Below, piece by piece: positions 3,821 to 58,265 of a stretch of 64,000 nt of DNA (position 1 is its first letter; each line of letters opens with the position of its first letter). The stretch is from Ruminiclostridium sp. (lineage in GTDB: Bacteria > Bacillota > Clostridia > Oscillospirales > Ruminococcaceae). The notes under the pieces were generated by a model that saw nothing but the letters and a program-made list of their open reading frames with translations, ran no database searches and was not told the DNA's origin. Made by a program: the position numbers and the translations under genes. The stretch spans positions 30,994-94,993 of the forward strand of contig JAGBMA010000092.1 in NCBI GenBank assembly GCA_017635095.1, written 5' to 3'.

Positions 3821-5296
3821 TCACAGTATGATGCAGATAAGACCTCCGCAGCCTTCGTTGATTATGCGCTCAATTGTCTCGCGCAGCTTTCCTCTCGCGT
3901 CAGCCGGCATACGATACAGTTTGTTGCGTAAACCTTCGTTCACCAGCTCATGCAGGGATTTTCCGAAAATGTTGCTTTCCCAGAGTTTTATCGGATCCTC
4001 CTCAAACTCGTTGAGCAGATAGCGGATAAGTTCCTCACTCTGGCGCTCGGACCCGACGATAGGAGATACCTCGGTCTCGATATCCGCGGACATCATGTGT
4101 ATCGACGGGGCGTGAGCCCTGAGACGCACTCCGTATTTTCCTCCCTGCTTTACGATCTCGGGTTCTTCAAGACTGAGTTCTCCTATATCCGGCATCACTA
4201 TGCCGTACCCCGTTGCCTGGACTTCATCAAGGGCGTTCTTTACCTTTTCGTAGCTCTTCTTTATAGCTGCAAGTTCGATCATGCAGGGCATTAGATCACC
4301 CTCATCGCTCAGCTCAAGTCCGGTTGTCTCACCGAGGATCTTATAGAACAGGTCTTTCTTCAGCGATATATTGATATATCCGGCACCCTTACCGAGATCT
4401 ATCTCTTCTATATTGCATTCTTCGATATTCTCTTCGTTGGCGACACACTTGGTTATCTTTTTTATCTCCCCTACTGAACCGATATCGGAAGCTGCGTTCT
4501 TTATCGCCGTAAACAGCTCGCGCTTGAGCCAGTGATCCTTATCGAGGGAATTGATCCACTTCGGCATCTTTATGCAGATCTCCTTTACCGGGAACTGCAG
4601 AAGGATCTCCGTAAGTATCTCTTTTACGTCCTTCTCCCCTATTTCCGTGCAGTTCAGCGGGATAACAGGCTTACCGTACTCTCCCGAAAGTCTCTCGGCG
4701 AGAGCCTGGCTTTCCGCGCTTCCCGGTTCCTTGCAGTTAAGCACAACTGCGAACGGCTTGTTTATGTTGTTGAGCTCATCTATCACGCGTTTCTCCGCTT
4801 CCTCATACTCCTCACGCGGGATATCGGTGAAGCTTCCGTCGGTGGTGATGACAAGTCCGATAGTGCTGTGTTCATTGATAACTTTCTGTGTCCCTACCTC
4901 GGCAGCCATATTAAACGGGATCTCACTGTCGAACCAGGGGGTCATGACCATACGGGGCTGCTCATTCTCGATATAGCCGATCGCACTCGGAACGATGTAT
5001 CCGACGCAGTCTATCAGCCGGACATTCATATATGTGCTTTCGTCAAGCTTCACGGAGACAGACTCTTCCGGAACGAATTTCGGTTCTGTCGTCATGATAG
5101 TCCTGCCGGCCGCGGACTGGGGCAGCTCATCGACTGCACGCTCACGCCGGAAGCTGCTCTCAATGTTCGGGATAACGATAGTCTGCATGAACTTGCTGAT
5201 AAATGTTGATTTTCCTGAACGCACGGGACCTACTATCCCAATATAGATATTTCCGTCTGTTCTCTCGGAGATATCATGATATATTGATCTGTTCAT
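3821..5296 (-). CDS. spoIVA: stage IV sporulation protein A (spore coat morphogenetic ATPase)
   Basis: The N-terminus DISERTDGNIYIGIVGPVRSGKSTFISKFM (Walker A) and the 491-aa length are characteristic of SpoIVA. Confidence 0.92.
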   Translation of the reverse strand: MNRSIYHDISERTDGNIYIGIVGPVRSGKSTFISKFMQTIVIPNIESSFRRERAVDELPQSAAGRTIMTTEPKFVPEESVSVKLDESTYMNVRLIDCVGYIVPSAIGYIENEQPRMVMTPWFDSEIPFNMAAEVGTQKVINEHSTIGLVITTDGSFTDIPREEYEEAEKRVIDELNNINKPFAVVLNCKEPGSAESQALAERLSGEYGKPVIPLNCTEIGEKDVKEILTEILLQFPVKEICIKMPKWINSLDKDHWLKRELFTAIKNAASDIGSVGEIKKITKCVANEENIEECNIEEIDLGKGAGYINISLKKDLFYKILGETTGLELSDEGDLMPCMIELAAIKKSYEKVKNALDEVQATGYGIVMPDIGELSLEEPEIVKQGGKYGVRLRAHAPSIHMMSADIETEVSPIVGSERQSEELIRYLLNEFEEDPIKLWESNIFGKSLHELVNEGLRNKLYRMPADARGKLRETIERIINEGCGGLICIIL

Positions 5297-5323
5297 TGTT
5301 TTTTCCTTTCAAAGAGTATTGTT

Positions 5324-6868
5324 TCAGACTATGGGAATAAGTATCATTCCCGATACTTCCGCCGATTCACTCTCAAGATCGTTCTCCGCTATTATTGCAG
5401 CCGCCGAGGTATTGTAGTGCTTGGAGATATCCCAGACTTTCTCACCGTTATCGGCAAAATACAGTCTTAACGCATAGTCGTTCTCTTTCGGCTTCGGCTT
5501 ATCCTCATTCACGGTGATCTCGCTGACTGCATCTATCGTATTCACACAGCACGATGAGCCGATAACATTTACCTGTGCGCGTATCTCGGCGGAGCTGTCA
5601 CCGGTTATGCCGAAGCTCACGCCGGAAATATAAGTGCACGGAAGCACCGTGAACACCTCGTCCGAAGGTATATCGGTCTCCATGTCAAAGCTTTCGTTCT
5701 TATCAAGCACTATGGGCGTGCCGTCCGATGACTTTCCGACTGCACGGAAAAGAAGCCGTATATTGAGCTTTACCCTTCCGTTATCGGAAACGCCGGGAGT
5801 AATGCCGGATATTAAGCATTCTGCATCGTATATCTCACCGATACCACCGTCGGTATATTCCATATCGCTGCGGACATTGTACTGTACGGAAACCGAACGC
5901 GGTGCGCTTTCAAGTCTGACCGGAGTAACTGTGAAGGAAGAGTCATAATCCGTCGAGTACAGGTCGTTCACGGCTTTTATCTGCGATTCCTTATATGCGC
6001 ATACCTTGCAGTCCACAGTCATATCACAGCCGAATGTACGGCTTTCTCCGCCGTCACTCTGCTTTATCTCAAGAGAGAAATCCATGATATCCAGCTCCGA
6101 CACCGTTATATGCGATTCCGTAACGCCGTTGAGATCGACTATCCTGCTGAGGGGTACCGATGCCTCCATTGACTCAACGGAAGTCTCACCGGAGCTGTTC
6201 TTTATTATGTAGAGAGCTTTTATATCCGCTTCGCCCTTTACTACGACTTTGTCTGCAATAACCTTCGTATCGGTCACTCGGGCGGCACAGGCGGAAGAAA
6301 TTACTGCAATGATCCCGCCGCCGGCACCCGTTTCTATATCCTCGCGTACAATATACTGTGAACCGCCGCAGAGCCGCTCATCACATATATCCACCGTCCG
6401 GGTACATATCTGCGTGCCCATTCCTTCCGCTCCGCACAGAAGCTCGCTCTCATACGCGCCGCACACTTTTATGCGAAGGCATACTGCGCCGCGTATATCT
6501 ATGCGCCTGCCGCTTACGGCTCTTGCCGTGCAGTACTCCACAGACGGGAATATGTTCACGACAGGATCCCTTACGGGGCGCGAAAGCTCCACAGTCTTGG
6601 AATATGTCGTTCTCTGATCCAGAACATTGATCTCGCTGCTTCCTTCGGTAAGATAAAGCACCTTGACATAGACAACCCCGTCAATAAACAGCTTATTATC
6701 GGAAACGCTGTACGATACGATCCCCGGTGTAAGCGTGCATTTAAGCAGCTTGAACACGTCCGGACAGTAATCCGGCAGAACATGCTCAAGCTCGATACCC
6801 TGCTCTGTCTGACCGTCAAAAACAGTCTCCGTGAGCAGTACCGGCTCTTTATCAAGTTTAAGTTCCAT
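5324..6868 (-). CDS. DUF3794/SPOCS-repeat protein with a C-terminal LysM-like domain; possible SipL/SpoVID-type SpoIVA partner
   Basis: GGAGG RBS before the ATG at 6868 (MELKLDKEPV...). The C-terminus YALRLYFADNGEKVWDISKHYNTSAAAIIAENDL looks like LysM. The gene lies 27 nt upstream of spoIVA on the same strand. Confidence 0.55.
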   Translation of the reverse strand: MELKLDKEPVLLTETVFDGQTEQGIELEHVLPDYCPDVFKLLKCTLTPGIVSYSVSDNKLFIDGVVYVKVLYLTEGSSEINVLDQRTTYSKTVELSRPVRDPVVNIFPSVEYCTARAVSGRRIDIRGAVCLRIKVCGAYESELLCGAEGMGTQICTRTVDICDERLCGGSQYIVREDIETGAGGGIIAVISSACAARVTDTKVIADKVVVKGEADIKALYIIKNSSGETSVESMEASVPLSRIVDLNGVTESHITVSELDIMDFSLEIKQSDGGESRTFGCDMTVDCKVCAYKESQIKAVNDLYSTDYDSSFTVTPVRLESAPRSVSVQYNVRSDMEYTDGGIGEIYDAECLISGITPGVSDNGRVKLNIRLLFRAVGKSSDGTPIVLDKNESFDMETDIPSDEVFTVLPCTYISGVSFGITGDSSAEIRAQVNVIGSSCCVNTIDAVSEITVNEDKPKPKENDYALRLYFADNGEKVWDISKHYNTSAAAIIAENDLESESAEVSGMILIPIV

Positions 6869-6989
6869 AGTGTACCTCCGTTTTTTATTGAGCATGACTA
6901 AACCGCATTGAACATGCTCTGTCAGAAAAAATATATTCCGATGATGTACTTGTTATGACAAGCTTGAACAATAAATTTATGCATGATAA

Positions 6990-7414: not shown

Positions 7415-7469
7415 AGAATTAGGAAACGAAGACATTAAAGGCAGAAGTATCGAGACAGGTGAAGAATTT

Positions 7470-47321: not shown

Positions 47322-47354
47322 GCTGAACTCAAAAAAAATGACAGCAGATCAGAT

Positions 47355-47395
47355 GCACCCTGTCCGGGAATTTCCGGGCAGGGTGCAGTTTGTAT
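47355..47395 (+). terminator. hairpin terminator after trpA (weak T-tract)
   Basis: A 13-bp stem GCACCCTGTCCGG/CCGGGCAGGGTGC with a 6-nt loop. Confidence 0.5.
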
Positions 47396-47423
47396 TGACA
47401 AATAAGGATAGATGTGCTATAAT
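47395..47423 (+). promoter_or_regulatory. sigma-A-type promoter (TTGACA-17-TGC-TATAAT), followed by GTTATAAA / TATAAC-N4-GTTATA candidate operator repeats at 47430-47495
   Basis: Read directly from the sequence. It lies upstream of the TetR gene. Confidence 0.5.
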
Positions 47424-47504
47424 AACTGATGTTATAAAGCGACATAACAGGCGTTATAAATGCTTGAACAATCAATATAACATAAGTTATAAACGGAGCG
47501 GAAA

Positions 47505-52084: not shown

Positions 52085-52200
52085 AACTGCGGCAGTCGTC
52101 AGAACTGCGGCATTCGTCAGAACTGCGGCATTCGTCAGAATTGCGGCAGTCGTCAGAACTGCGGCAGTCGTCAGAACTGCGGCATTCGTCAGAATTGCCA
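52085..52200. repeat. 18-bp tandem repeat, six full copies plus one partial, overlapping the MBOAT stop codon
   Basis: AACTGCGGCA(G/T)TCGTCAG units at an exact 18-bp period from 52085. Confidence 0.95.
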
Positions 52201-53604
52201 GTAGAGAAACGGATTGTTTGTGCTGTTTACCAGCAGTATCGAGCTTGCAGCCAGTATAAGTGCGTTGCAGACGATAGTTGAGATGCCCACCGCGTTCTGA
52301 CCGGAATTCGTCTCCTGCAGCTTTGCGCGGAGCCAGGGAATAAGGGGAGCGCTGAAAATGACGGCTGCGGAAATAAGGAAGACGTTGTTCATGAAAGAGG
52401 TCTGAGTGCCGAGATCAATGAGTTGGTTGCCGTTGGCTCCAACGAGGTTGCCGAGGAAAGTTCCGAGCGCCTGCAGCCCGCCCGCTTTGTCGTTGAAGTA
52501 GAATATGCCGAAGCCGACAACTATCACGATCTTTGCGTATATATGCATTATCGGAGCAGGCACCTTTTTGAGCCGTTTGCTTCCGATAAGGCGCTCTATG
52601 AAAATGAAAATGCCGAAATAAAGTCCCCAGATGATGTAGTTCCAGCTCGCTCCGTGCCAGAAGCCGGTGCAGAACCATACCAGAAACAGGCTCGCGTACT
52701 GTCTGCGTTTGCCGAAAAGCGGAACGTAGAGCAGGTAATCGCGGAAGAACGTCCCGAGGGAGATGTGCCAGCGCTGCCAGAATTCGGTGATGTTCTTTGA
52801 TACGAACGGGTAGCGGAAGTTCTCGTCGAAGTGGAAACCGAATATCCGTCCGAGACCGATAGCCATGTCGGAATAGCCCGAGAAATCGTAGTAAACGTAC
52901 AGCGCGTACAGGATCACGGCATACCATGTGCCTGCAACCGAAAGGGTCGTGAGGTCATTCCCGAAGTATTTCTCAACTATGGCATAAAGGCTGTTGGCGA
53001 TGATGACCTTCTTGCCGAAGCCGAAGATGAAGCGTGTAATGCCCGCACTTATGTCCTCGGCAGAAGAGCGGCGGGAGTTGATCTCGTTTTCGATGACGCT
53101 GTAACGGACGATAGGGCCTGCAACAAGCTGGGGGAAGAGCGAGATATAGAGCATGAGCTTGCCTGCGTTCCGCTGGACCTGAACTTTGCCCCAGTAAACG
53201 TCCATAATGTAGGAGATGATCTGGAAGGTATAGAAGCTTATACCAATAGGGAGCGGGATATGCGGAAGAGGGATATCGGTGCCGAACAGATTGTTTATAT
53301 TGGCCAGGAAAAAGTCTGTGTACTTGAAAACAGCGAGCATTCCGAGGCTCAGTATAAGCGAGAATGCCACGCCGAGCTTCGCTTTCGCTGTGCCGCGGAA
53401 CTTGTCGATCATCAGACCGAAGCCGTAGTTGGCGAAAATGCTTATAAGAAGCGGGATAAGCCAAAGAGGCTCGCTCCACGCATAGAAAACGAGCGAAAAG
53501 GCTATAAGGACAATATTTCTGTAAACGGTATTTCTGCCAATGAAGTAAACGGGGATCAAAGCCGCCATAAACACATAGACAAACACCAGATCTGTAAATT
53601 TCAT
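52189..53604 (-). CDS. MBOAT family O-acyltransferase (AlgI/DltB-like)
   Basis: A 471-aa multi-TM protein. FWQRWHISL and the conserved His region (FWHGASWN) are typical of MBOAT. Confidence 0.85.
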   Translation of the reverse strand: MKFTDLVFVYVFMAALIPVYFIGRNTVYRNIVLIAFSLVFYAWSEPLWLIPLLISIFANYGFGLMIDKFRGTAKAKLGVAFSLILSLGMLAVFKYTDFFLANINNLFGTDIPLPHIPLPIGISFYTFQIISYIMDVYWGKVQVQRNAGKLMLYISLFPQLVAGPIVRYSVIENEINSRRSSAEDISAGITRFIFGFGKKVIIANSLYAIVEKYFGNDLTTLSVAGTWYAVILYALYVYYDFSGYSDMAIGLGRIFGFHFDENFRYPFVSKNITEFWQRWHISLGTFFRDYLLYVPLFGKRRQYASLFLVWFCTGFWHGASWNYIIWGLYFGIFIFIERLIGSKRLKKVPAPIMHIYAKIVIVVGFGIFYFNDKAGGLQALGTFLGNLVGANGNQLIDLGTQTSFMNNVFLISAAVIFSAPLIPWLRAKLQETNSGQNAVGISTIVCNALILAASSILLVNSTNNPFLYWQF

Positions 53605-53727
53605 ACTAATCTCCGTGAATAAATGATGTATCTATTATACATTAATAAAGTAAATATTTCAACCTGTTTATGAAATTTTTTTGCAAATTCCGGAGCTCTG
53701 CTCTCAGGAGAAACAGGGTACTGCACT

Positions 53728-53761
53728 AAAATGTTCATGTTTTTGAATTTCTGAACATTTT
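53728..53761. promoter_or_regulatory. 10-bp perfect inverted repeat AAAATGTTCA-N14-TGAACATTTT
   Basis: Read directly from the sequence. It lies about 125-155 nt upstream of the MBOAT start. Confidence 0.5.
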
Positions 53762-53764
53762 CGG

Positions 53765-53848
53765 GGATATTTCGGCTTGTTTTTGGGATATTTGGGGCCG
53801 AAAACAGGATATTTTGATGTTTTTTGGGGATATTCTGAAAATGATCGT
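53765..53848. repeat. four GGATATT boxes phased at exactly 21 bp (iteron/response-regulator-like direct repeats)
   Basis: The boxes start at 53765, 53786, 53807 and 53828. Confidence 0.85.
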
Positions 53849-55976
53849 GATTTTTTCATTGAACCAAAAGATAGTTTTGTGAAAAATCAGATGATCTGAT
53901 TTATTTTTCCGAAAAAAATCATGTCATCTGATTTATGCCCGCGAACCCGCATTGTGAGCGGGTCCGCGGGCATCGGGCAAACTTTGTGGCTTGTTTTCTG
54001 CGTTGAAGGGTGCATTTTCGGTCAGTATAAGCAAAAAAAATCGCTGCGGGCGAACCTGATCCGGGGAAACGAGAAACCTACTGTACCGCTCTGTGCCGCA
54101 GTATGACAGATAGATGAACATTTTTTACCGGTTGGGACAGCAGTCTGAGATCATGATGCTTCCCGGAACATCTAACCCCCACAAAGATTATGAAAATTTT
54201 CGCACCGGTTTATACATTTCCGAGAGCCCGAACTGCTCGGTGTAACTCAGGTAATGAGAGCAGGGTCACACGGTTGTAAAGATGATGAGGGCGAGAACTT
54301 GATACGCCGAATATTGGGTGCTTGCTAAAACGGGCGTAAAAAAAGCAGATAAGACTGTCGTTTTGTGGCGTAAGAATGAAAGAATGGAAATGTTCATATT
54401 TTAAGAAAAAATGCCCGTTTGAGCTGAGGTCGATTTCTTGCCGGAGGAAAGAAAGAAATCGTACTGTCAACGCCATGTGCAGCTTCTGTGTTAAGACTGA
54501 CCCGAAGAATCGCGTCATGGCAAACTCATCGGATTATGACAGGGCGGAGTTTGCAGAGGATATCCGAGGGATATCAGATACTTGTACGTATATGCAAAAT
54601 TTGTGAACAATGCACAATAAAACAAGGTGATTTGCATTGTTTTTCCGGCTCTCGGAATAGGCGTTATGTGAAAAATGAGGTCATTTGAATTTTCACATAA
54701 CGTTTATAAAATCACATTATATACGCTTTGTAAAAGAAAACTTGTGTGAAAAATCAGGTAAGCTCAGTTTTCACCAAACCGGGGAGAGATAGTCTGACCG
54801 GCTTATATCATTAACTTACGACAACTGGATATCAACCAAAAGGGGGTGATTAAAGGGGATTTTTAAACACAAAAATAAGATGATGCGATTTTCCTGAATG
54901 CTGAAGCGCGTTTGCTTTGTTCACAATTTATAATGTTAGTGAATAAACCAATTCATTATTTGGCTGTTCGTGAACATCTTTAATGTGAACAGTTTAAAAA
55001 CGATGATCCGGATTATTTTTTATTCAAATTCGGACATTATTTAAATATTGTCCAAACCTGCTCTGATGGCAAATAATTTCTGTCGATGACGCGGATTTTA
55101 ATGTGAAAAAGTGTCATAAAACCGCAGAATAAAGCGAAATTTCCGTGTTTTCAATACTGCGTCGTTATATAAGCTAATGACCGAGACGGGATTTTCCCCT
55201 AAAAGATAAATCAGATGACTTGAATATTGTATAATTCGACGTAAAAAAGACAAAAAGTAAAGAATTTGACAAAAATCAAAGCAAAAAACTGATATAAAAT
55301 ACAGATTTTTGTCAAAATATTGTGAAAATAATAACAAAAAGCAAGGCTGTAAAAATCAAATGATCCTATTTATTAAAAGTGTGAACAGCTCGGTTTCTTT
55401 CGTTGAAATGCACAAAACTTCTACTGATATCTTCTGTCTCCGGAACTGCATTACCCTGTATTTTACTAACTCCGGTTCGTGTACAATAGGTCGCTTGGTT
55501 CTCATTTCCTCAGCACGAATCAAATAAGACCGGTTAGGAGATAACAATGCAGATCGGCTTAGATGTCCCGCTGAAACGGGAAAATTTGTCAGTTCCTGGG
55601 TGGGAGATGCAAATTCAGAGATGTTCATATTTTAATGAAAAAATGAAAATTCAGGATATCTCTGTTTCAGAGCTCAGGAAATTTCCGAAACGGGTAATAG
55701 TAGGTTCCATTTCACGGGAAATAACTGAGACGAAGGATAAAAAACTGCCGGACGGAAAGAATAGCATGGGAAAGCCTGCTTTCAGACGCCTTACAAAAGT
55801 TATTCATTGTTTGTTATTCTTAAAATTTGAACAGACCGGCTTGCCCGAAAAGATCAAACCGAGCAAAGTCTGCAAAAAATATTGTAAAAAATTGCGGTTG
55901 GCAATAAAAATCACTTGACATTTTGCGATAATTAAGGTATTATAAAATATATATGTATAGGATCAGGTGAATTCAT

Positions 55977-57086
55977 TTGTATTTCGGCAGTGTAAAATTC
56001 TTTAAACATATTATAGTTGCTGTAACAATACTATTAATAATAGTACCTTGTGTGTTCGCTTTCATTCTTTCCTCAAAAGTTGCTCAGCTTGAAGAGGAGA
56101 ACCAGAGCCTACGGTCTGAGATCGGGGAGTACCAGCTTACCGGACATCAGTCCCGCTATGACGCGGACGAGCTTTTCAGCCTTTATAAGGAAAACCTTGA
56201 AAATAAAGATGATTTCCTTAAACTTGCATATGAGTACGATGAGGGAATGTACAAGAACGCCGCGGGTATCGAAGAACAGGCTGTTCCGACTTCATCGGGA
56301 AATATCATAACAGCAGCACCTGTCACAGAGAATAATATAACTCAGTCCGGTACGATAAACGGCCTGGACGAGCCTGAGGAGGAAACCCCGAACAGCGGTA
56401 CGCCCTCGTATCAGATGCTCTATCCCGACCTTTACGCCGAGCTCCCCGAAAATATCATATACAACGACGATATGGACTACGTTTACCTGACTTTTGACGA
56501 CGGTCCTTCCAAATATACAAAGGATATCCTCAATTACCTCAAGGCTTACGACATCAAGGCGACATTCTTCGTAGTGCCCGACGGAAGCGAGGAAAGCAAT
56601 GCCCGTCTGAAAGCTATCGCTGATGCAGGTCACACTATCGGTATCCATACCGCAACACATGAATACGACAAGATATATGCAAGCGTCGATGCCTACCTTG
56701 AGGATTTCAAGATCGCATATGACCGAGTTTATGAAGCCACCGGCCTGAAGTGCAATCTCTTCCGGTTCCCCGGCGGCAGTATCAACGACTACAACACAGA
56801 GATCCGTGATGAGCTTATCGCCGAGATGACAAGGCGCGGGTTCATATACTTCGACTGGAACGTTGACAGCAGCGACGCTATGGGCGCAACATGGACGGAG
56901 ATGTATAACAACGTCCGCACGCAGACCATGGACGTGAACCGCGCAGTCATACTCATGCACGATTACAACGGCGGCTGGAACACGATCCTTGTGCTTGAGG
57001 ATATAATCAAGTGGATAATCGGCAACGGAAAGAGAACTTTCCATGTCGGACAGCTCTCGGAGTTCGTAAAGCCCGTCCAGTTCTGA
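55977..57086 (+). CDS. polysaccharide deacetylase (NodB homology domain) with an N-terminal TM anchor
   Basis: YLTFDDGPSKYT, ATFFV, IGIHTATH and FRFPGG are NodB motifs. The TTG start is preceded by AGGTGA. Confidence 0.8.
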   Translation: MYFGSVKFFKHIIVAVTILLIIVPCVFAFILSSKVAQLEEENQSLRSEIGEYQLTGHQSRYDADELFSLYKENLENKDDFLKLAYEYDEGMYKNAAGIEEQAVPTSSGNIITAAPVTENNITQSGTINGLDEPEEETPNSGTPSYQMLYPDLYAELPENIIYNDDMDYVYLTFDDGPSKYTKDILNYLKAYDIKATFFVVPDGSEESNARLKAIADAGHTIGIHTATHEYDKIYASVDAYLEDFKIAYDRVYEATGLKCNLFRFPGGSINDYNTEIRDELIAEMTRRGFIYFDWNVDSSDAMGATWTEMYNNVRTQTMDVNRAVILMHDYNGGWNTILVLEDIIKWIIGNGKRTFHVGQLSEFVKPVQF

Positions 57087-57176
57087 TAAACGACGTAAAC
57101 GCCCTACGCGGCGGCAAACATACACACATTGAAAGGAGTGCGGATCCGGCATGATAACGGGGATCCGGTCATCAAA

Positions 57177-58265
57177 ATGGGTATAAAGGATAATTTTCAG
57201 CAGGCGCTCAGAGAGCTTACCGGCACCGAAAAGGACGATACCAAGCGTGAAAAGCGCATAGACGCCATGAAAAGCGCAGTCGCTGCGGGCGATACGTCCG
57301 AGTTTGATGCAATAAGAGATGTAAGCGACGGCTCCTCTTTCGAGGAGATAGAGAAAAGAGCGGCCGCGGCTGCCGATGAGTACAGCAGACAGCAGAGCGC
57401 TTATACCGGCGTTCAGCGTATTGACGGCAGCAATATCGGAGATGTTCCGCCTATGCCGGATGATCTCGGCGGTATGGATATGTCCTCCGCCGGTATGCAG
57501 CAGCCCACACAGAATATGGGATATCAGCAGTCCGCGCAGAATATGGGCTATCAGCAGTCTGCACAGAACATGGGCTACCAGCAGTCCTCACAGGATATGG
57601 GATATCAGCAGCCCTCACCGAATACGGGCTATCAGCAGTCCGCTCAGAACATGGGCGGCTACCAGCAGGCTCCGAATGCCGGCTACCGCCAGCCGGGTGC
57701 ATCGGGTATAGGCACCGGTCCGGCAACTGCCGGAGATCCTGCAGCACAGCAGCAGAATATCTTCTCGGCTGCACGTTATCAGCACCCGATGAATGAGGAC
57801 GACGAAATAACGGTCATCTCGAGGAATACAGTCATAGACGGAAATGTGCGTTCTTTCGCCAATATGAGCGTTGACGGCAACATCAAGGGCAACATCGAGA
57901 CCACAAAGGATATAGACCTCAACGGCAAGGTCGTGGGAAATATAGCCTGCAACAACGCACAGATGCGTACATCGCAGATACAGGGCAACATTCAGATGAA
58001 AGGCAACGCTTATATGGAGCGCGACACGCTTCTTATCGGAGACCTTACTTCTACATACGCCAATGTGAACGGCAAGATCAAGGGCAACCTTGACATCACC
58101 GGAAAGGCTGAGCTCAAGAGCGATGCTGTAGTATTCGGCGACATAAGCGCTTCCACGATCACCGTGAATGACGGCGCGATCATACAGGGCTATGTAAGCA
58201 CCACATTCCTCAACAAAGAAGAAAGCAAGAACATATTCCCCGATACTATCACGATCGGCGAATAA
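57177..58265 (+). CDS. bactofilin-family cytoskeletal protein with a Gln/Tyr-rich repeat linker
   Basis: The C-terminal beta-helix repeats (IDGNVRS...VDGNIKGNI...LNGKVVGNI...VNGKIKGNL...VFGDI...INDGAIIQG) are typical of bactofilin/DUF583. The start is uncertain (TTG at 57129 or ATG at 57177). Confidence 0.75.
   Translation: MGIKDNFQQALRELTGTEKDDTKREKRIDAMKSAVAAGDTSEFDAIRDVSDGSSFEEIEKRAAAAADEYSRQQSAYTGVQRIDGSNIGDVPPMPDDLGGMDMSSAGMQQPTQNMGYQQSAQNMGYQQSAQNMGYQQSSQDMGYQQPSPNTGYQQSAQNMGGYQQAPNAGYRQPGASGIGTGPATAGDPAAQQQNIFSAARYQHPMNEDDEITVISRNTVIDGNVRSFANMSVDGNIKGNIETTKDIDLNGKVVGNIACNNAQMRTSQIQGNIQMKGNAYMERDTLLIGDLTSTYANVNGKIKGNLDITGKAELKSDAVVFGDISASTITVNDGAIIQGYVSTTFLNKEESKNIFPDTITIGE
57498..57686 (+). 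repeat. about seven in-frame 27-bp tandem repeats encoding QQ(S/P)xQNMGY
   Basis: Read directly from the sequence. The copies differ mostly at synonymous positions. Confidence 0.9.

Follow-up and report, generated by a model that had tools for sequence, protein, structure and literature searches.

The longest intergenic gap in the window analysed here (a stretch of 64,000 nucleotides (nt) from a contig of Ruminiclostridium sp., JAGBMA010000092.1) occupies positions 53605-55976, 2372 nt in all, and separates a gene for an MBOAT-family protein from a divergently transcribed polysaccharide deacetylase gene. Comparison of this gene-free gap with its counterparts in related genomes leads us to conclude, with fair confidence, that it is functional non-coding DNA: an array of putative protein-binding sites that works at the level of the double helix, with a core of about 0.7 kilobases (kb) in which the sites are locked in helical phase. 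As to the purpose of the array, the sequence comparison gives roughly an even chance to the co-regulation of two strong divergent promoters through a looped complex.

The gap is AT-rich, with a G+C content (GC) of 0.30-0.46 against about 0.52 in the flanks. An earlier note, made from the letters of the window alone, had described an AT-rich gap of about 2370 nt between these two divergent genes, and the description is exact; its statement that all other gaps in the window are shorter than 350 nt was slightly too strict, as others reach 354-418 nt in a simple greedy gene call, and the contrast in length, five- to sixfold, is real. No convincing open reading frame (ORF) had been seen in the gap, and none is found now. 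The ORFs are short and overlapping, 30-123 amino acids (aa) only; six-frame translations of the gap match neither a Pfam family (E up to 1) nor an NCBIfam one (E up to 0.1), and no peptide is conserved across the gaps compared beyond the conserved islands of DNA. Public records, NCBI nr among them, list the longest of these ORFs (123 aa, 55547-55918) as a protein. The protein cluster to which it belongs has seven members only, all at least 90% identical, and the ORF has no domain match and sits in a poorly conserved segment of which sister lineages have only parts; the gene call is probably spurious.

Relatives of the locus were collected through the two flanking proteins, and the gap is kept in 15 related contigs (L001, L002, L003, L091, L093, L095, L097, L099, L102, L103, L137, L139, L141, L151 and L153) from uncultured spore-forming Clostridia, down to 59% identity of the deacetylase. 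The records are named as uncultured Clostridia, Ruminiclostridium sp. or Oscillospiraceae. In all collected loci the MBOAT gene stands back to back with an operon of deacetylase, bactofilin and OGG genes. The gap measures 1331-2528 nt in the relatives, at GC 0.34-0.45, and 3018 nt in one further contig; gene callers place no gene in these gaps except one unsupported 154-aa ORF in L153. More distant homologues of the MBOAT protein (70% identity or less) have ordinary gaps and other neighbours. Most pairs of gaps align over less than about one quarter of their length, and between conserved islands they are mostly unalignable, so that the long-term retention of the gap does not follow from recent common ancestry alone. 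The earlier note had allowed for the region being absent or unconserved in relatives; both the gap and its motifs are conserved in the 15 contigs.

The same species recurs in several metagenome assemblies, in which the gap is 98.4-100% identical to that of the window. Compared with one of these strains (L087), the window has 38 substitutions in the gap, all within 54292-55609, one in the adjacent part of the MBOAT gene and none in the deacetylase gene; the segments 53974-54590 and 54590-55609 together hold most of the substitutions seen within the species. Three of the differences from L087 (54765, 54893 and 55220) are located in or beside copies of the motif described below, and all three move toward the consensus in L087, the one at 54765 restoring the palindrome of site P2.

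The main repeat of the gap is a 23-base-pair (bp) pseudo-palindrome, AAAAATCAGATGAYCYGATTTTT, present in 5-9 copies per gap. In some copies the motif is lengthened to 31 bp, TGTGAAAAWTC-N9-GAWTTTTCACA, and these form a pair of elements, P1 and P2, about 78 bp apart; many others lack the TGTG/CACA ends. In 10 gaps the word TGTGAAAA occurs 51 times against 1.4 expected, AATCAGATGA 16 times and GATTTTTCAC 19 times, with 0.1 expected for either, and the motif is enriched 20-150-fold over composition-matched shuffles. The dispersed repeat family and the hairpins of the earlier note are real, though the note had given neither the motif nor its conservation across species. A position-weight matrix trained on these 10 gaps recovers seven copies of at least 20 bits in the gap of the window and no match of even 12 bits in the remainder of the 64 kb. 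The same matrix finds 6-7 sites in each of five lineages that were fetched later and had been held out of the training. Over 1.58 Mb of fetched loci, matches of at least 18 bits are confined to these gaps, with the exception of two in L001. A metagenome-wide scan with exact patterns likewise places motif clusters at this locus only; single matches elsewhere were judged unrelated, those scattered over viral contigs are consistent with chance, and several of the viral and metagenomic singletons lie inside long ORFs.

The two copies outside the gap form a second locus in one sister lineage only. They score 26.9 and 20.9 bits, are 63 nt apart (L001:16364-16449) and stand upstream of a TetR-family gene, in the stretch that separates the stop codon of trpA from its terminator; the homologous spot of the window, 47322-47504, has none. 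The known operators compared with it (Rex, CRP/FNR, CodY, Fur/Zur, TnrA/GlnR, BirA, ArgR, ArsR/SmtB, Spo0A, LexA, IHF and ComK), do not fit the motif in both sequence and spacing, and a literature search with the raw motif words returned only primers and unrelated sequences.

The copies are ordered along the gap in the same way from lineage to lineage (Table 1). The P1/P2 pair, made of elements of 30-31 bp, is recognisable in every lineage, with arms degenerate in a few, and the two elements are 77-78 bp apart in 14 of the 15 (65.5 bp in L097). Site S6 is fused to a further module, TTGTATAA...GACAAAATGTAA, which is found in 10 of the 15 gaps, in L103 as the variant TTGTCTGA. This module was considered as a promoter on either strand (sigma-A, extended -10, sigma-E/F/G/K, ECF) and rejected, as hexamers and spacing never both fit in all lineages. 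The conserved TGTCGATGACGCGGATTTT block between S5 and S6 resembles half of the core motif in degenerate form.

What is conserved in these elements is the sequence of the arms and not their ability to pair. The 25 full-length elements of 31 bp hardly vary at arm positions 1-8 (at most two departures each); position 9 is A or T independently in each arm and is unpaired in 13 of the 25, and the inner positions are often mismatched. Arms that are nearly invariant outside and unpaired or mismatched inside indicate selection on the half-site sequence.

The distances between the sites of the core change by whole turns of the helix. Spacing values within 2 nt of each other were collapsed to classes to avoid over-counting shared ancestry, and periods of 5-20 bp were scanned. 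The interval P2-S5 forms classes of 121, 132, 163, 174 and 184.5 bp (122 bp in the window), for which the best period is 10.5 bp, with R = 0.99 (5 of 100,000 Monte Carlo trials, p = 5e-5). The longer interval P2-S6 has classes of 457, 468, 479, 511, 531 and 542 bp and a best period of 10.6 bp, with R = 0.95 at 10.5 bp and 0.97 at 10.6 bp (26 of 100,000, p = 2.6e-4). Classes of 336, 347 and 368 bp are found for S5-S6 (best period 10.8 bp, R = 0.98 at 10.5 bp) and of 135, 144-148 and 158-159 bp for S6-S7. In several lineages S5 is shifted by one turn while P2-S6 is held at 467-469 bp. Sites 1 and 2, nearer the MBOAT gene, are 32 bp apart in the window and 43-44 bp apart elsewhere, that is, one helical turn more. 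A/T tracts, too, recur with a periodicity that, when summed over all gaps, is strongest at 10.5-10.75 bp (z = 3.6). The phase is kept within the core and not outside it: the distance from site 2 to P1 ranges over 459-907 nt without a constant helical phase, and a hand calculation from coordinates found no constant phase in either outer segment (hairpin to P1, S7 to deacetylase promoter). Since B-form double-stranded DNA has a period of 10.5 bp, the constraint acts on the double helix, and its quantisation in whole turns implies selection. The usual cause of such a constraint is contact between bound proteins, through looping or wrapping of the DNA. The earlier note had listed an extended regulatory region among its candidates without choosing between them; the conservation of the motif at the sequence level, together with the helical spacing, favours that candidate in the form of a regulatory or protein-binding region.

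Table 1. Genes, promoters, sites and other elements in and around the gap (positions in the window)
Feature	Position	Strand	Remarks
MBOAT gene	52189-53604	-	Pfam PF03062; NCBIfam DltB-like match weak
MBOAT promoter, TTGAAA-17-TATAAT	53634-53662	-	Consensus scan 11/12; about 30 nt upstream of MBOAT start codon
Phased GATATTT array	53760-53840		GATATTT at 53766, 53787 and 53808, GATATTC at 53829; exactly 21 bp (two turns) apart
Site 1	53878-53904		TGTG + 23-bp core (AAAAATCAGATGATCTGATTT...); 30.8 bits; orthologous in the window, L001, L002, L091, L097, L099, L137
Site 2	53914-53936		Core copy, 27.0 bits; 32 bp from site 1
GC-rich hairpin/palindrome	53935-53973		Directly after site 2; arms 53935-53950 / 53958-53973, 94% complementary
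Variable segment 1 (GC-richer core)	53974-54590		Length varies; largely unalignable to L001, L002
Second motif copy, TGTTCATATTTTAAGAA	54391-54407	+	Other copies 55622-55638 (+), 55817-55833 (-)
P1	54667-54697		31-bp element TGTGAAAAATGAGGTCATTTGAATTTTCACA
AAATACGC..TGTAAA block between P1 and P2	54718-54735		Conserved in 11-sequence alignment; conservation island
P2	54745-54775		Second 31-bp element; right arm degenerate in window genome
S5	54871-54893		Core copy, 25.0 bits
TGTTCAC/GTGAACA cluster + conserved AATGTTAGTGAATAAA block	54915-54995		Partly conserved in L001, L002
Conserved TGTCGATGACGCGGATTTT block	55079-55111		Conservation island in up to 8/9 other lineages; aligns in L001, L002
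S6	Core 55206-55228, with module to 55262		Core copy fused to module TTGTATAA-nnCGACATAAAAAAGACAAAATGTAA
S7	55351-55373		Core copy, 23.8 bits; then conserved GTGTGAACA
Variable segment 2	55400-55880		Holds 123-aa ORF and inverted second-motif pair; parts missing in L001, L002
Deacetylase promoter, TTGACA-17-TATTAT	55915-55943	+	Consensus scan 11/12
Polysaccharide deacetylase gene	55977-57086	+	Pfam PF01522; NCBIfam match PgdA/PdaB-like

The array is bounded at both ends by promoters that fire outward and are close to the sigma-70-type consensus. The MBOAT promoter (TTGAAA or TTGCAA, a 17-nt spacer and TATAAT) and the deacetylase promoter (TTGACA, the same spacer and TATTAT or TATAAT) stand at the same places in all 15 lineages. 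What the comparison shows is that the gap lacks genes and known RNA families, that it is conserved, that its motif is specific to the locus and kept as sequence more than as pairing, and that the spacing is quantised by the helix; we infer that a protein binds the array, what kind of protein it would be, and that the flanking promoters are its targets. A sequence-specific protein, probably a dimer, would occupy the ordered sites between the two promoters. Elements P1, P2, S5, S6 and S7 (54667-55373) would make up the core, in which whole-turn spacing lets the bound proteins face and contact each other; cooperative binding would then loop or wrap the DNA into a complex resembling a repressosome, and this complex would jointly control the MBOAT and the deacetylase-bactofilin promoters.

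Between the MBOAT promoter and site 1 there is, in the window and in other 'type A' lineages (nine with the window), a further array of 4-6 GATATTT units, with 27 of 39 intervals exactly 21 bp. Phased direct repeats had been noticed earlier, and in the window the units are indeed exactly 21 nt apart; Tandem Repeats Finder does not report this array, as its units are too divergent, and it was measured directly. It may be either another protein array or DNA with an intrinsic curve. Many lineages have, besides these units, sites 1 and 2 and the GC palindrome near the MBOAT promoter. In 'type B' lineages (L102, L103, L139, L141, L151 and L153) the GATATTT units are absent, and the P1-P2 pair is directly upstream of the MBOAT promoter.

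Control of transcription by looping between several operators is well established: in the E. coli deo operon the three DeoR operators are about 600 and 880 bp apart, OL and OR of lambda interact over 2.4 kb, and gal, ara and lac are further examples. Such regions, like the gap, distribute several palindromic sites along hundreds to thousands of bp at or between promoters, with helical phase kept; both of their defining features, two or more copies of one palindromic motif and inter-site distances in constant helical phase, are present here. The gap differs from them in having at least seven sites, a fixed 78-bp pair of 31-bp elements and a 21-bp array within 1.3-3 kb; moreover, no high-scoring site overlaps the flanking promoters in this genome, and the motif matches none of the operators with which it was compared.

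Several observations weigh against a looped complex acting on the two promoters. No binder was identified, and the nearby TetR-family gene is not syntenic in all lineages. This gene was considered as the binder, in view of the two motif copies upstream of it in L001, and rejected, since synteny fails in L153 and its matches to the TetR family are merely generic. In 'type A' lineages most sites are 0.3-1.2 kb from either promoter, which is far for ordinary operators, and by the hand calculation S7 keeps no fixed phase relative to the deacetylase promoter. Because of the kinship among the lineages, the spacing classes rest on about 5-6 independent length changes per interval, and the centre of a pseudo-palindromic site can be placed only to within about 1 nt. 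Some changes in the GC-rich hairpin are compensatory, among them G-U-compatible ones on the plus strand, so that this piece may have a role as RNA or as a cruciform. Finally, the same features would fit a role in chromosome architecture that has nothing to do with the flanking genes. With no binder named, and with most sites distant from the promoters, we hold the promoter-looping role to be an even call and do not put it higher.

The role in chromosome architecture or replication is the strongest of the alternatives, and is unlikely in our estimate. It would make the array a centromere-like, polar-anchoring, partition or replication-control site, present once per chromosome, whose neighbours are not regulated by it; the place between divergent promoters would simply keep the array free of transcription. 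This agrees with the clustering of the motif at one locus only in all sequence examined, with the phase-locked spacing and with the long and variable distances to the flanking promoters. The organism encodes SpoIVA and a SipL (SPOCS-domain) protein side by side (window 3821-6895) and is therefore a clostridial-type endospore former, and spore formers need chromosome anchoring. Phased 21-bp direct repeats with related palindromes in AT-rich DNA also resemble iteron-type origins and partition sites, among them lambda ori, the iterons of F, R6K and pPS10, parC and sopC. In those sites, too, tandem direct repeats of about 21 bp lie on one face of the helix, with related palindromes nearby, in AT-rich DNA without through-transcription, and the GATATTT array has the tandem direct repeats of 17-22 bp in helical phase by which iterons are recognised. 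The half-site TTTTTCACA fits the relaxed DnaA-box consensus TTWTNCACA.

Each specific hallmark that was looked for is, however, missing. The canonical DnaA box TTATCCACA, with up to one mismatch, is absent from the gap, while the window has 22 matches elsewhere, five of them perfect; the parS consensus TGTTNCACGTGAAACA has no match in the window with up to two mismatches; GC skew is positive on both sides of the gap, with no switch in the 64 kb seen. Neither dnaA nor dnaN, parAB or rep is encoded within about 10 kb, and oriC in Firmicutes usually adjoins dnaA and dnaN. A blastn comparison with 72,556 plasmids and 50,697 phages gave no match. The gap is, unlike the iteron and partition sites, part of a chromosomal locus that is syntenic clade-wide, and the 21-bp array is missing in 'type B'. 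Clusters of DnaA boxes are also known outside oriC (datA and DARS of E. coli, and clusters in B. subtilis); these are intergenic clusters of a repeated protein-binding word, one that TTTTTCACA would fit in its relaxed form, but the gap lacks the box TTATCCACA within one mismatch, its unit is 23-31 bp long, and many of the copies have no TGTG/CACA ends. The earlier suggestion of a replication- or partition-related locus is thus weakened, though it fits the single-locus distribution and the iteron-like array. A more explicit version, in which the seven or more phase-locked sites and the 21-bp iteron-like array are a platform where a protein builds a large complex for anchoring, segregation or replication control, as a single-copy organising centre of the chromosome that regulates no gene, is unlikely too, perhaps slightly more so. 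Two perfect TTATCCACA boxes and one with a single mismatch are found within 340 bp at window positions 7469, 7718 and 7802. As a candidate origin this group was set aside: the boxes near 7469 and 7802 appear, by eye, to lie within a pair of small ORFs that follow a Mu-F-like gene fragment and not in an origin-like gap.

Improbable, next, is a reading at the level of RNA, in which the gap encodes a long RNA, several small RNAs or long 5' leaders, and the palindromes would fold as hairpins in the RNA. In places the predicted folding is very strong, with z = -7.5 and -8.6 on the two strands for 53865-53980 and -3.4 and -3.9 for the P1-P2 block, and on one strand the consensus core would make a perfect stem that includes a single G-U pair. 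The GC-rich hairpin after site 2, which the earlier note had correctly placed at the opening of a GC-richer core, is conserved with some compensatory and G-U-compatible changes: in eight lineages 74% of cells pair, against 30-45% with slid partners, and six pairs change on both sides, a count reached by 59 of 500 shuffles. It is a conserved palindrome with modest support for a structure. The hairpin potential is equal on the two strands, as palindromes would lead one to expect. The arms of the 31-bp elements, as described above, are conserved as sequence, with the unpaired A-or-T position and the frequent inner mismatches. Motif orientation is mixed: sites 1 and 2 are inverted repeats in the window, L001 and L091, and direct repeats in L093 and L095, which means that the long hairpin seen in the window is not conserved. 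The 10.5-bp spacing period is a property of double-stranded DNA.

Signals for a transcript of its own are also lacking. No internal sigma-70-type promoter is conserved in position in the 15 lineages, which share only the two gene-proximal ones, and there are no terminator-like sites in 53400-56200, against 2.0 in shuffles. Rfam covariance models (including OLE, GOLLD, ROOL, raiA and HEARO) have no match at gathering threshold in the 64-kb window or in 12 related loci (145 kb); with E up to 10 there are only chance-level matches to snoRNA and miRNA families, far below threshold. The large Firmicute RNAs just named are, like the gap, long, conserved and ORF-free, with strong predicted structure, but the gap matches none of their models, is conserved mainly in short islands of sequence rather than in covarying helices, and folds equally on both strands. 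The non-coding RNAs that headed the candidates of the earlier note are accordingly disfavoured.

Still less probable is a tract of decayed mobile elements or pseudogenes without present function, consisting of MITE- or REP-like palindromes or of Tn7/Mu-type transposon ends with repeated transposase-binding sites. In its favour are the extra pair of motif copies in L001, by which the motif is seen to be able to turn up elsewhere, the segments of variable length inside the gap and the inverted pair of a second motif around some 180 nt; the TGTG...CACA termini with repeated internal sites are also reminiscent of transposon ends. Yet six-frame comparison with Pfam and NCBIfam reveals no protein remnant, and with no conserved peptide either, neither a pseudogene tract nor the single degraded gene that the earlier note had considered is supported. 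The motif copies are conserved as collinear orthologues amid intervening sequence too diverged to align; outside the gaps, the 1.58 Mb of loci and the window hold only the L001 pair; there is no plasmid or phage match; the three substitutions within the species that touch motif copies all go toward the consensus; and the quantised spacing implies selection. REP/BIME, BOX and MITE elements are, similarly, short imperfect palindromes clustered in intergenic DNA, and one lineage does have two copies elsewhere, but the copies in the gap are orthologous, ordered and phase-locked at a single locus and are not dispersed over the loci searched. A neutral AT-rich spacer with chance or compositional repeats is effectively refuted, for although AT-rich DNA yields many short repeats, and several two-copy repeat families in the gap are probably due to chance, the motif enrichment over shuffles, the conservation in 15 contigs and the conserved inter-site distances are not of this kind.

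Several other elements in the gap stand apart from the main array. The GC-richer segment at 53937-54360 indeed exceeds the rest of the gap in GC (0.42-0.46), as the earlier note had it, but it is the least conserved part of the region. The second motif, TGTTCAWATTTTAAGAA, has three copies in the window and is also found in L093, L095, L097, L139, L151 and L153; in six lineages the deacetylase start codon is preceded, at about 160 nt, by a minus-strand copy. The inverted pair at 55622 and 55817 flanks about 180 nt, and no inversion of the segment between the two copies was seen, nine contigs of the same species and the related lineages all being collinear. Within this motif there is a mini-ORF, ATG TTC ATA TTT TAA (Met-Phe-Ile-Phe-stop), at 54393-54407 and 55624-55638, conserved at the nucleotide level in L095, L097, L139 and L151. 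For want of a convincing ribosome-binding site, and since L153 has no ATG at this place, it was set aside. An inverted repeat, AAATGTTCA-N14-TGAACATTT (53729-53760), lies just upstream of the 21-bp array and shares the word TGTTCA with the second motif. The heptamer TGTTCAY/RTGAACA is enriched, with nine copies in the gap; the window has 41, of which about 1.5 would be expected in the gap by its share of length, and the total for the window exceeds that in 100 of 100 shuffles. Four of the eight occurrences of TGTGAACA in the window are in the gap.

The genes within about 10 kb are trpBA, the TetR-family gene, leuS, an epimerase gene, those for MBOAT, deacetylase, bactofilin and OGG, and a GH25 gene. 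The bactofilin gene (57129-57946) differs from that of L087, a strain of the same species, at 93 of 818 aligned positions (11%), while the adjacent deacetylase gene is identical, and its products in public contigs are 359-378 aa long; the 5' region of this gene looks hypervariable or recombining.

Gene-free intergenic regions of 1.3-3 kb that are kept across a whole clade are rare in bacteria. In this one, the conserved property is the geometry of the sites and not the intervening sequence, as sites 120-540 bp apart shift by whole turns only, and this amounts to comparative evidence, drawn from sequence alone, that uncultured Clostridia of gut and rumen build a protein-DNA assembly in which the DNA is looped or wrapped. 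The 23/31-bp motif, the 117-bp P1-P2 fragment and the 0.7-kb core provide a defined object for finding a new DNA-binding protein. Should that protein be a regulator, the array would show how a spore former co-controls two cell-envelope operons, one for the MBOAT acyltransferase and another for the deacetylase and bactofilin; otherwise the gap may represent a chromosomal landmark of a new kind.

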